From Escherichia phage Ec1-ASingh, in the sequence record PQ561397.1: 3,442 bases of DNA; one strand, 5' to 3'. Both the position numbers and the translations under genes were made by a program. The notes under the pieces were generated by a model that saw only the letters and a program-made list of their open reading frames with translations, had not been told where the DNA came from and searched no databases. This document shows, piece after piece, positions 1 to 3,442 of the stretch (its first letter is position 1; each line of letters begins with the position of its first letter).

Positions 1-1425
1 GAAGTCTATGAAGCTGCACATACCCGCCTGACTACCGGCGGTAAATCTACAGTTCTCGATAGACACACCGTTAATGTGGGTGGTGGCTGTTGAATCCGGA
101 CCCGCGGCTAAAATTACTGCTTGCCCGGAAATATCACCAATTACCCCTGACACAACAGCATTGTACAGGTATGTACCCGCTCCCGCTGATTCTGCCCCAT
201 GCAGAGCCACATAACAGCCGCGTGTGTATCCGGAGATAATTGAATCTCTGTACCAGGTATCATGTTGGTGTAGCTCCACTGAACACGCTATAACTTGCGC
301 CCTTGAACTCACCGCACGGAATATGCAGTTATCTACACCACTGAAAGGACAGTTAACATATACGGTACTGTGGTCCGCGTTGTTAGCACTCTGTATCAAA
401 TTAATAAACTTACAGTTAGATACCTTACAATTAGACCCATACCCATTCCAGCCAAGGGTAACACCCCAAGTAACATCACCGTTCTGGAAAGTAATACCGG
501 TTACTGAGCAGTTGTAGCTGCGACCAAAAGCGATACCGTTGCGTAACTGTGATGTCGCCCCAAAGTCATAACCACCAAAGTCTATCGTACCGTTGCCGTG
601 AATATGGCAATTATCGAGATTACCGGAGCTTGCAGGGTCACCATTATCAAAGCCTACAAACACCTGAAATGACGAGGAGGCCAAAGCAGGCCCTACTTTA
701 ACAGTACCGTCTAGCTTAATACTTACATTGCTTTTCAATTGTATCAGGCCGCTGTGACCCGATACAGGTCCGGTGCTAATGCTATTCAGATACCATGTAC
801 CTTCCGGTATATGTAGTGTGCCGCCGCCGTTTGTGTTCAGGTAGTCTATAGCTGCTTGCAGATACTGACGGCTGTCAACGCTAACCCCAGGCTGAATCAC
901 ATCCCCGGATGAGTCACAATGAAAATCCCACAGGCTGACCGTATCATCTAATTTATCAGCAACCGTTCTTTTTGTGGTGCTTAGGCTGCCGTCGTACGAG
1001 TACCCAATCAGAGAAGCCCCGCTAAATTCGGACAAGTCGATTCGTAACGCAGAGCCGTCTATAAGTTTCCATCCTGTTGTCGGGGATGAGGATGCTGGAA
1101 CAATCTTAGGATACGCACCAGTCCAGGAGTAGTACTGACCATCGCCACCCGGCAACGGCCAGAGTACTATCTTGTCCTCGTCCCCGGATGCAAGAGTACC
1201 TCCAGAATCGAAATTAAAATCAGCCACGGCAGAACCAATGCTTTTAAGAACCGCAGGGAGCGTCTTTTGCACCTGTCCGGTTACCGCATTGGTCGCGTAA
1301 TCAATATCCGCACCCCCAGCAACACCGCCGGATTTACCAGTGATAACCTCGGCTTCGAAAATCTGGTGTTTTTTGGCGGTTTGTAAATCCGCCAGGCTTA
1401 AAACGTCACCGCATCCGCTTGACAT
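1..1425 (-). CDS. Tailspike / receptor-binding protein, 3'-partial (475 codons in window, C-terminus beyond position 1): N-terminal virion-attachment module plus right-handed parallel beta-helix (pectate-lyase-3-like fold), predicted capsule or O-antigen depolymerase
   Basis: ATG at 1423-1425 (minus) preceded by a Shine-Dalgarno sequence. I checked all 475 plus-strand triplets in this frame (positions 1-3, 4-6, ...) and none is tta, cta or tca, so there is no minus-strand stop down to position 1. Hand translation: MSSGCGDVLSLADLQTAKKHQIFEAEVITGKSGGVAGGADIDYATNAVTGQVQKTLPAVLKSIGS...DFHCDSSGDVIQPGVSVDSRQYLQAAIDYLNTNGGGTLHIPEGTWYLNS...NCHIHGNGTIDF...YNCSVTGITFQNG...SNCKVSNCKFINL...VNCPFSGVDNCIF...IENCRFTAG. 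The D-x-SGD...AIDY...GGGTLHIPEGTWYL entry motif and periodic Asn-Cys rungs are typical of beta-helix glycanases and phage tailspikes. Absent from the ORF track only because it runs off the window without a stop. Confidence 0.85.
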   Translation of the reverse strand, partial: MSSGCGDVLSLADLQTAKKHQIFEAEVITGKSGGVAGGADIDYATNAVTGQVQKTLPAVLKSIGSAVADFNFDSGGTLASGDEDKIVLWPLPGGDGQYYSWTGAYPKIVPASSSPTTGWKLIDGSALRIDLSEFSGASLIGYSYDGSLSTTKRTVADKLDDTVSLWDFHCDSSGDVIQPGVSVDSRQYLQAAIDYLNTNGGGTLHIPEGTWYLNSISTGPVSGHSGLIQLKSNVSIKLDGTVKVGPALASSSFQVFVGFDNGDPASSGNLDNCHIHGNGTIDFGGYDFGATSQLRNGIAFGRSYNCSVTGITFQNGDVTWGVTLGWNGYGSNCKVSNCKFINLIQSANNADHSTVYVNCPFSGVDNCIFRAVSSRAQVIACSVELHQHDTWYRDSIISGYTRGCYVALHGAESAGAGTYLYNAVVSGVIGDISGQAVILAAGPDSTATTHINGVSIENCRFTAGSQAGMCSFIDF

Positions 1426-1437: not shown

Positions 1438-3442
1438 TTAATTAAAACCATTGCTGAATCCGTCGGAGAAACCGCTGCCGTATGGCGCGACGCCGTCGTA
1501 TTTATAGAATCCGTCGTCATAGTTGTAGCCCGTAATCTTGACCGTGCGGTCATCGCCAGGGTCGATTGAAGAAACAACTATCTTCTGAGCATTATGCCTT
1601 GCTTCGTTGCCGAATGAAAACTCAGTTTTTAGTGCGCTATTCCCCGTGTAGATTGCTTCCTCTGGCGCAGAGAGCATAATCACCTCGCGGTCGTGGCTTC
1701 CTTTGATAACAGAGATGCTTTGCACCGAGCCATCGCGCTTCTTGAGGATGATGGAGTGATCGTCGCCTGGGGTAAACGAAACAGGCTGAGACAGCGTAAG
1801 TGTAAGCCCGTTAACGGCAACAACATAGCCATCCTGCGGCGCGATACGCGAGCCTTTAACGACACTGATTACGCCACCAGGGGTAGCGAGTGCTCCCTCT
1901 TCGGTAGCTTCGAACTCTACGACAACTTTACTTAACGCGTTGCGTTGGTAGCGACGCCACGCCAGCCAGTACGCTTGCTGGTAGTTGCGCACGCCTTTCG
2001 ATTCGTATTCCTCGGTGTTTGCTCCGAGTTCTTCCGGGATATAAATTGTTTCCTGTACGTTAGTATCCGGGTCGATGTACGAGAACGACAGGCTATCGTA
2101 AGTTGTAGAATCGTTGAACGTGCGGGTCCATTTCTCCGTACCGGTAGTTTTGCTGCGGTGGGTGAACACCATTTCAGGCCCAGCAACCGGACGGTCGAAT
2201 CGCAGCATAATATCCGCACCTTTACGGTACGCAGTACAGAACACGGCTTCCGCTATGGCCTGAACAATGTCCTGCATGGTTGTGTCGTAGTCGTCGAACG
2301 TATAGCAGAACTGACCCGCTAATTCACTTCCGAAATAGGACTCAATCTCTTCCTGCACCGCAAGTAACTTGTCCATGTTTGCCGTCGTCAGCTCCAGATT
2401 ACCCACCGCGGGGTCGCGCGCCAGTCGGATTAGCGACTGCACCGCCTGCGTGTTCGGGGTCATTACAGTATCGAATACCCCATTTCCGAGGTATTTGTAA
2501 CACATCTCAGTCGCAATCATGCGCAGTTCAGGGTTGTCAATACTGGCGGCCCGCGGTGTCTGTTTACGGGCGCAATGTACTGTTGTCCGGTTGCCGTAGT
2601 GCGGGGTTGTGTCCAGAGACTGCCCGTACAGGTTGATGAATGTTATCTCATCGCTTACGGTACCGTCGTAGTCCTTATCAAAATTCGTTATACGACGCAT
2701 ACGGGCGCGGAAACGCGATGCGGTAGGCAATTGCCCGTAGATAGACGTGCCAACGTAATCCGTGCTATTACCGGTAACGGTGCCTTGTACGGTGTAGATA
2801 TCACCAATCGGGTTACGCTGAGAATCGATCATCTGGTACTGGAGTTCTACGGTTACATTGGCTCGGCTATAACCGCCGTCGTATTTGTAGAGGCCGTTCT
2901 GCCCGGCAACGTTAGCAAGCACCCGGTCAACTTCTCCGCGCACCATGTAATACCAGTCGGTCAGGGATACGTCGTAGGTGTCTCTCGGACCAATGAAAGT
3001 ATCAGAACGCTCTGTTAAGGTATACGTCTGCCCACTGGTTAACGCGTCCCAATTAGAAGCACCATTCACCGCCAGTCTTACTTCGAAGTCATCGACATAT
3101 AAAACCTCAAACGAGCCGTTAAGGTTAGTGACGCCTGCAACGTCAAAGTTGCTCAGCACCGCGACATCACCGACGCTAAGAAACTCAGAAAAAGCGGAGT
3201 CACCCGACGGGTCATAGATGTAGCCGGTGTTTGAAATACGTTTCGCGGTGCCATCGGCGCTTGGGTTAGCCCCGATGTCGTTTGGCGCTTTCAGTACAAT
3301 ACCGTCAACGTCGTCGTTGGAGTATGTCACATAGAGTTTCTGGTCAATGACGTCCCCGATTTGTAGCTGCGGAGATGTGGTGTTGTTCGGGGAGGTATAT
3401 GGCGCATACACGGCAACAGAGGAGCCTGTGATGTCACTTATC
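1438..3442 (-). CDS. Tail-tip / central hub protein, lambda gpJ-like (host specificity protein J family, hub domains only); 5'-partial, true start lies beyond the window end
   Basis: Uninterrupted minus-strand reading frame from the window edge (3442) to the TAA at 1438-1440 (revcomp of tta). The track's 657-aa ORF starts at a GTG (revcomp of 3409-3411) with no Shine-Dalgarno upstream, and the frame stays open for 10 more codons to the edge (...ISDITGSSVAV-YAPYT...). Motifs I recall from lambda J hub domains: RARMRRIT (about 2689-2712; lambda NIRMRRMT), FCTAYRKGADIMLRFDRP (2188-2241; lambda FCSAMRCMPVWNGQTLTFVQDRP), GYVVAVNGLTLTL (lambda GGRVLAVNSQTRTLTLD), DPGDDRTVKITGYNY (lambda ENDDGTYAITAV). 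The protein ends soon after this region with a Gly/aromatic-rich tail instead of lambda's FN3 repeats and receptor-binding domain. Confidence 0.85.
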   Translation of the reverse strand, partial: ISDITGSSVAVYAPYTSPNNTTSPQLQIGDVIDQKLYVTYSNDDVDGIVLKAPNDIGANPSADGTAKRISNTGYIYDPSGDSAFSEFLSVGDVAVLSNFDVAGVTNLNGSFEVLYVDDFEVRLAVNGASNWDALTSGQTYTLTERSDTFIGPRDTYDVSLTDWYYMVRGEVDRVLANVAGQNGLYKYDGGYSRANVTVELQYQMIDSQRNPIGDIYTVQGTVTGNSTDYVGTSIYGQLPTASRFRARMRRITNFDKDYDGTVSDEITFINLYGQSLDTTPHYGNRTTVHCARKQTPRAASIDNPELRMIATEMCYKYLGNGVFDTVMTPNTQAVQSLIRLARDPAVGNLELTTANMDKLLAVQEEIESYFGSELAGQFCYTFDDYDTTMQDIVQAIAEAVFCTAYRKGADIMLRFDRPVAGPEMVFTHRSKTTGTEKWTRTFNDSTTYDSLSFSYIDPDTNVQETIYIPEELGANTEEYESKGVRNYQQAYWLAWRRYQRNALSKVVVEFEATEEGALATPGGVISVVKGSRIAPQDGYVVAVNGLTLTLSQPVSFTPGDDHSIILKKRDGSVQSISVIKGSHDREVIMLSAPEEAIYTGNSALKTEFSFGNEARHNAQKIVVSSIDPGDDRTVKITGYNYDDGFYKYDGVAPYGSGFSDGFSNGFN

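Follow-up and report, generated by a model that had tools for sequence, protein, structure and literature searches.

A two-part N-terminal module, probably a virion anchor, on the tailspike of Escherichia phage Ec1-ASingh, shared by phage spikes with unrelated receptor-binding domains

The tailspike of Escherichia phage Ec1-ASingh begins with a module that is common to many phage spikes whose receptor-binding domains are unrelated to one another. We analysed a stretch of 3,442 nucleotides (nt) from sequence record PQ561397.1, called the window in what follows, whose minus strand encodes the first 475 residues of this tailspike behind a gene for a J-like tail-tip protein. The shared N-terminus is a composite of a lineage-specific stub (residues 1-60, sub-module A) and a widespread neck domain (residues 61-125, sub-module B). 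Taken as a whole, the protein is very probably a modular, presumably homotrimeric tailspike of a K1ind-like Kagunavirus, with window positions 1081-1425 encoding most of its virion anchor.

The reverse-complement translation of window positions 1-1425 begins MSSGCGDVLSLADLQTAKKHQIFEAEVITGKSGGVAGGADIDYATNAVTGQVQKTLPAVLKSIGSAVADFNFDSGGTL. This is the peptide that an initial annotation, made from the letters of the window, had quoted for positions 1081-1425, and on the minus strand those positions coincide exactly with codons 1-115. This frame is a real gene and no chance open reading frame (ORF), since the window is ~93% identical in nucleotides to phages K1ind1, K1ind2 and K1ind3 of the genus Kagunavirus (subfamily Guernseyvirinae), and residues 1-115 share 97.4% identity with the K1ind1 tailspike.

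The initial annotation proposed a cassette-type protein, in which a conserved N-terminus docks interchangeable enzymatic domains, and separate searches with the protein's N-terminal part (N-part) and its C-terminal part (C-part) support it. Using tblastn, residues 1-115 matched 520 phage records, 487 of them at 60-80% identity. Salmonella phages, mostly Jersey-like siphophages, account for 365 of these records and Escherichia phages for 106; other hosts are Klebsiella, Serratia, Enterobacter, Hafnia and Aeromonas. Residues 161-475 matched only 38 records: those of K1ind1-3 (97.5% identity), of the Kuttervirus myophages EP75, SenALZ1 and their relatives (~77%), of podophage HK620 (63%) and of distant Acinetobacter spikes (~25-32%). 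In PHROGs, the first 115 residues matched 13 families of tailspikes or tail fibres; with the C-terminal 315 residues there were two matching families. Both groups of carriers that the initial annotation had named, Jersey-like phages (SETP3) and capsule-specific Escherichia coli phages (K1H, K1G and fTaEco03), were confirmed.

Two database records among the carriers deserve mention. PP389045.1, ‘Pseudomonas phage vB_PsS_LDT325’, has a Jersey-type tailspike N-terminus at 73% identity, like the Salmonella Jerseyviruses; its host, Pseudomonas syringae, is an unexpected label for a Jersey-type phage. In BFVD, Salmonella phage MB78 has a ‘38 kDa minor structural protein’ (Q8H9Y4, 333 residues) that is 85% identical to the stub over 60 residues, and its older annotation as a structural protein agrees with carriers of the N-terminus being virion components.

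The spike loci of 20 phages were then taken, and 16 Guernseyvirinae tailspikes were compared; one locus (L013, Salmonella phage GE_vB_M4, an UNVERIFIED record) was excluded for its frameshifted tailspike. Every pair of the 16 N-modules is 55-99% identical, while the C-parts split into 13 groups between which BLASTP finds no similarity. Pfam assigns several of these C-parts to the K1 endosialidase (fTaEco03), the P22 endorhamnosidase (SETP3), the HK620 type (K1ind1), generic beta-helix or NosD types (phiEap-2, VSiP) and a type bearing the S74 chaperone (fFiEco02), with a sub-threshold GH28 match for Ro145c2. Mean pairwise identity descends in steps along the protein, from 90% (residues 1-60) through 52% (61-130) and 15% (131-160) to 9% (161-190). 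This profile bears out the different character that the initial annotation had noted for the N-terminal part; the annotation had also treated the N-terminus as a single unit, and here the steps divide what is indeed a shared module into two.

A larger sample was obtained with phmmer, searching residues 1-60 against 1.84 billion representatives of 50%-identity clusters. It returned 365 cluster representatives at E<=1e-3, of which 347 were at E<=1e-10. Among the 150 matches listed, the match sits at residues 1-60 of the protein (2-59 in a few). The 135 listed carriers of at least 500 residues were compared in all pairs: in residues 1-60 there is similarity in all 9045 pairs (mean identity 87%), and in residues 61-135 in 98% of them (mean identity 57%). 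Beyond residue 140 only 1.0% of pairs are similar, and single linkage leaves 78 groups. A word-indexed protein search with residues 1-130 returned only fragments of <=209 residues and was uninformative on C-terminal diversity.

Sub-module A, which carries the pattern MSSGCGDVLSL...TGQxQKTLPAVL at the extreme N-terminus, is 82-98% identical to 14 other members over residues 1-60. It hardly varies among the genera Jerseyvirus, Kagunavirus and Cornellvirus and the unclassified relatives on Hafnia, Enterobacter and Klebsiella. Foldseek and BFVD searches with a 170-residue model were dominated by sub-module B, and sub-module A was modelled and searched separately. Its AlphaFold2 (AF2) model has a predicted local distance difference test (pLDDT) score of 86.6, and in it helices at 11-29 and 56-63 flank a small beta hairpin at 43-54. 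A profile search of PDB with residues 1-64 found no solved sequence homologue, the best match being a lipoprotein at E 0.18.

Sub-module B carries a YYxWxGxxPKxVPA motif followed by an LRxDL junction, and is modelled by AF2 as a beta domain (pLDDT 76-93). At residues 95-117 the Pfam family PF18668 (Tail_spike_N) scores 24.1 bits, below its gathering threshold of 25 bits. Six of nine scanned relatives score 29-63 bits, and K1ind1 scores 22.7. The K1ind-type neck domain lacks ~7 residues (‘STGGVxx’ after SSSPT) that most relatives have, at residues ~116-120 (window 1066-1080), and this deletion probably explains the shortfall. Profile searches match TSP4 (E 2.3e-6) and TSP1 (E 8.8e-4) of phage CBA120, and Foldseek matches CBA120 TSP1, TSP3 and TSP4 at E 4e-4 to 4e-3 and probability 0.97-1.0. 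By profile and fold, the same domain stands just before the receptor-binding part in Shigella phage B2 Gp48, CBA120 TSP1/3/4, G7C gp63.1 and Sf11 gp13. It is also found at residues 104-160 in Kuttervirus EP75, at the far N-terminus (24-122) of the spike of the Aeromonas jumbo phage AVP1, and at 146-220 in the T7-like Kayfunavirus IMM-002, behind a T7-type attachment domain. Sub-module B is thus a common neck or hinge of myo-, podo- and jumbo-phage spikes and not lineage-specific. The CBA120 spikes and G7C gp63.1 (PF18668) resemble the present protein in the profile, fold and placement of this domain; there, however, Tail_spike_N follows other, lineage-specific attachment or branching domains. 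Among Guernseyvirinae anchors the K1ind-type sub-module B is the most divergent (30-47% identity).

By sequence, the border between anchor and receptor-binding domain falls at about residue 125, with the conserved module ending at ~125-130. BLASTP homology to the HK620 tailspike begins at residue 123 (HK620 residue 111), the point at which HK620's P22-type head-binding domain stops. HMMER aligns residues 131-468 with residues 9-347 of the HK620 chain in PDB 2vji (E 1e-141), as far as the window reaches. The published anchor limit for K1ind1 is residue 125 (PMC10408124 Table S1). The initial annotation had ended the anchor at ~115 and begun the beta-helix at ~162; both limits have to be moved, because the identity profile and the HK620 homology set the border at ~125 and residues 131-161 already belong to the HK620-type module.

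From residue ~126 onward the protein is predicted to be an HK620-type endo-N-acetylglucosaminidase with the O18 O-antigen of E. coli as its target. The catalytic residues of HK620 are reported to be Asp339 and Glu372 (Barbirz et al. 2008). They align with D351 and E384 of the tailspike, so that the pair is conserved; in HK620 chains in PDB, a change from E to Q at that Glu is the sole difference from wild type. An O18:K1:H7 host had served to isolate the K1ind phages (GenBank K1ind1 record), and O18 specificity has been assigned by homology to K1ind1, EP75 RBP1 and HK620 (PMC10408124 Table S1).

This receptor-binding module occurs on three different anchors, those of the K1ind siphophages, the Kuttervirus myophages and podophage HK620. 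From its residue 111 the tailspike of HK620, a Lederbergvirus, is 60-63% identical to ours, but HK620 attaches by its P22-type head-binding domain (residues 1-110), which is unrelated to the N-terminus here: a comparison of HK620 residues 1-110 with tailspike residues 1-135 found no similarity (best E 1.7, over 11 residues). Judged from these alignments, the two anchors would share a function and belong to different families. The spikes of K1ind1-3 and EP75 contain no endosialidase domain, so the name ‘tailspike 63D sialidase’ that GenBank gives them is misleading for what is an HK620-type endo-N-acetylglucosaminidase module; the affected records are K1ind1 ORF26 (locus L001, 3501-5666) and EP75 ORF167 (locus L018, 2416-4680).

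The only solved homologous tail is that of the Shigella siphophage Sf11, determined by cryo-EM (PDB 9occ), in which gp13 is ordered only at residues 4-59; trimers of this stub bind the adaptor helix of the distal tail protein (Dit) gp17, and 18 copies make six trimers per virion (PMC12724387). All three Sf11 tail proteins concerned have homologues in the phages studied here. Residues 52-133 of our tailspike align in register with Sf11 gp13 50-132, the region of sub-module B; the Dit of K1ind1 (ORF23) matches gp17 at E 1e-91; and the J-like protein has the Sf11 baseplate hub gp14 as its only PDB sequence match (E 2.7e-18). For the DUF1833 (gpL-like) protein of K1ind1 there was no PDB sequence match. 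Among Kagunaviruses with unrelated spike enzymes the Dit core (residues 1-162) is ~90% conserved, with or without an appendage of ~300 residues. We infer attachment of the spike by residues 1-60 from their conservation, the purifying selection on them and the analogy with Sf11; the trimeric state, docking as the role of these residues and Dit as their partner are presumed. By that analogy, residues ~5-60 would dock on Dit, a partner we somewhat favour over the J-like hub.

Kagunavirus Dit comes in two forms, a long one of 456-466 residues (K1ind1, 590B, SCS92, fFiEco03) and a short one of 166 residues; the Dit genes lie at 2992-4392 of locus L022 (K1ind1 ORF23), 1594-2094 of L016 and 1585-2085 of L020. 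Homology of the appendage extends to its counterpart in Sf11 gp17 (E 1e-91) and, more weakly, to the head-spike fibre of RcGTA (6tb9, E 2e-10).

Several points weigh against this picture of attachment. The alignment of the Sf11 and K1ind1 Dit proteins lies mainly in the C-terminal appendage (159-464) and not in the core with the adaptor helix. The AF2 models are monomers, and the window lacks both the C-terminal ~245 residues of the spike and the Dit gene. A 2026 modelling paper describes the Guernseyvirinae as structurally uncharacterised (PMC13243795). Finally, gene adjacency and a conserved C-terminal tail leave the J-like protein as an alternative partner: the stub might dock on this hub through its FSxGFxxGF tail or through a tethered N-terminal domain. 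The tailspike gene follows the J-like gene with a conserved 12-nt spacer in every locus, the final ~40 residues of J stay conserved from genus to genus alongside sub-module A, and modelling of the Jersey hub found that the J-like protein bears an unplaced, conserved N-terminal domain, with function and position left open (PMC13243795). We nevertheless rate docking on J as unlikely, for in Sf11 the equivalent stub sits on Dit and not on the hub, all three of its tail proteins have their counterparts here, and adjacency is common among tail genes and does not prove contact.

Nucleotide comparison with K1ind1 bears on where spikes have been exchanged. Identity is 89-92% in J, 90% in sub-module A, 96% in sub-module B and 97% in the receptor-binding part, and mismatches differ between sub-module A and the remainder (B plus enzymatic part) with Fisher p 8e-5. 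They cluster in codons 46-60 (window 1246-1290), with 10 in 45 nt, and it is there, at codons 45-59, that megablast loses homology to every other spike gene of Kagunavirus. Codons 46-60 may be a recombination junction between stub and neck domain, which would place the exchange in the K1ind lineage after sub-module A (codons ~45-60), with sub-module B moving along with the enzyme. This is suggestive and not proven, since a single change-point fit to the mismatches between window and K1ind1 places the largest shift at codon 276, which lies within the receptor-binding part and at no module border. In fFiEco02, ST20, Ro145c2, fFiEco03 and phiWAO78-1, sub-module B is 90-95% identical while the C-parts are unrelated, and the swap point in these Kagunaviruses lies after B, at ~residue 129.

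The N-terminus could also be conserved as DNA, being a homology arm for recombination, an element of translational coupling or a regulatory signal. Nucleotide identity between Kagunavirus spike genes does stay at ~86-90% over codons 1-45/59, and beyond them it drops abruptly. Across genera, however, codons 1-60 are 75-76% identical as DNA and ~82-92% as peptide. Against SETP3, 45 of 180 nt differ, yet only five amino acids change. Synonymous differences in codons 1-60 outnumber nonsynonymous ones by 3.9:1, and the peptide is confidently folded in the model. The synonymous excess and the few residue changes place the constraint on the peptide, which is under purifying selection, and not on the DNA. 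A conserved motif in sub-module B has been proposed as a recombination hotspot (PMC10408124); we considered YYxWxGxLPK as a DNA recombination arm and rejected it, the DNA being only 52-70% identical between phages and so too low for a good homologous-recombination arm. All told, a DNA element is a very improbable explanation.

The remaining alternative, that there is no modularity and the N-terminus is conserved through vertical inheritance of the whole protein, has full-length homologues at 97% identity in its closest relatives K1ind1-3 to recommend it, and is scarcely credible given ~500 further records that share the N-terminus alone, C-parts that are unrelated in 99% of pairs among the 135 listed carriers, and the presence of the C-part on unrelated anchors in HK620 and Kuttervirus.

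The modularity of the Kagunavirus anchor, including the border at residue 125 in K1ind1, is already published. Phylogenies of anchors and receptor domains, with AF2 models, exist for Kagunavirus, K1ind1 included, and make the anchor-plus-receptor-domain design explicit; the K1ind1 spike is listed there as O18-specific by horizontal transfer (PMC10408124). Other papers distinguish K1-dependent from K1-independent spikes (PMC11641727) and describe the general glycan dependence of Guernseyvirinae (PMC11990801). As early as 2010, the GenBank note for K1ind1 read ‘N-term. similar to 63D and C-term similar to HK620 Tsp’. The closest known protein is the tailspike ORF26 of K1ind1/2/3 (ADA82374.1 / YP_009597310.1), with 97.5% identity over residues 161-475 and 97.4% over 1-115, which likewise follows the J-like gene. 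SETP3 gp32 (Jerseyvirus, P22-type endorhamnosidase) and the spikes of K1H, K1G and fTaEco03 (Kagunavirus, K1 endosialidase) share sub-modules A and B at 55-77% over ~130 residues, and at 82-98% over residues 1-60, in the same locus behind the J-like gene; their enzymatic domains, in contrast, are unrelated to the HK620-type one here.

What is new at the level of the isolate is a mosaic that joins a fFiEco02-type J 5' half to a K1ind-type spike. Ec1-ASingh is a different isolate from K1ind1, their overall nucleotide identity being 93%, and the best record for the whole window in the phage collection reaches <=93.5%. The J-like 5' half (window 2443-3442) is 99% identical in nucleotides to fFiEco02 and VIPECOTPH05A and 89% to K1ind1; spike residues 61-475 (window 1-1245) match K1ind1 at 96-97% identity and have no counterpart in fFiEco02.

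The features of the window are collected in Table 1. The order of J-like gene and tailspike is identical in 15 loci, and the spacer between them has equal length and near-identical sequence in 15 of the 15 Guernseyvirinae loci compared; its ribosome-binding site lies 7 nt upstream of the tailspike ATG. The J-like protein matches PHROG 469 ‘tail protein’ (E 7e-206) and has weak Pfam matches to Phage-tail_3 and GpJ FNIII. Its C-terminal tail reads ...PYGSGFSDGFSNGFN (window 1438-1480), and the terminal residues form an aromatic-glycine tail, with the consensus FSxGFxxGF, that is kept across genera at the same position (loci L001-L021). The plus-strand ORFs of the window are antisense to the two genes and have no support.

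Table 1. Features of the window and their coordinates
Feature	Position	Strand	Remarks
Tailspike gene, 5' part	1-1425	minus	475-codon open frame; ATG at 1425-1423; 3' end beyond the left window edge
Receptor-binding/enzymatic module, residues ~126-475	1-1050	minus	HK620-type right-handed beta-helix; truncated by the window end
Sub-module B, tailspike residues 61-125	1051-1245	minus	Tail_spike_N-type beta domain (neck/hinge)
Sub-module A, tailspike residues 1-60	1246-1425	minus	Guernseyvirinae-specific, putative docking stub
Intergenic spacer, 12 nt	1426-1437	minus	From J-like stop to tailspike start; ribosome-binding site AAGAGGA
J-like tail-tip/hub gene, C-terminal ~667 residues	1438-3442	minus	Stop at 1438-1440; 5' end cut at 3442

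We propose the following model. A helix-hairpin-helix stub (residues ~5-60), almost invariant in the subfamily, would fix the spike to the tail tip; three stubs probably clamp the Dit adaptor helix, with six trimers per virion if the analogy with Sf11 holds. Residues ~61-125 would serve as a neck or hinge of Tail_spike_N type, and the HK620-type beta-helix from residue ~126 onward is expected to bind and cut the E. coli O18 O-antigen. Recombination downstream of the stub would replace the enzymatic part and confer a new host specificity, and the tail need not be rebuilt, since the stub is kept constant to fit a conserved tail. There would be two exchange points, one after residue ~60 (K1ind lineage) and one after ~125-130 (many other Kagunaviruses). 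In its fullest form, in which residues ~5-60 are an unrecognised, widespread docking fold (at least 365 protein clusters) seated on the Dit-core helix, with six spikes per tail and two nested exchange points, we consider the chances of the model evenly balanced.

For annotation, the gain is that the protein can be described as a spike with an O18-type endoglycosidase on a Guernseyvirinae anchor and not as a ‘sialidase’. The Sf11 structure makes the anchor's physical attachment site a testable question. The module borders offer a basis for host-range engineering, in which residues 1 to ~125 are retained and the remainder is exchanged. For the family itself, a constant anchor with exchangeable enzymes accounts for the way these closely related siphophages move among the O-antigens of Salmonella, those of E. 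coli and the K1 capsule.

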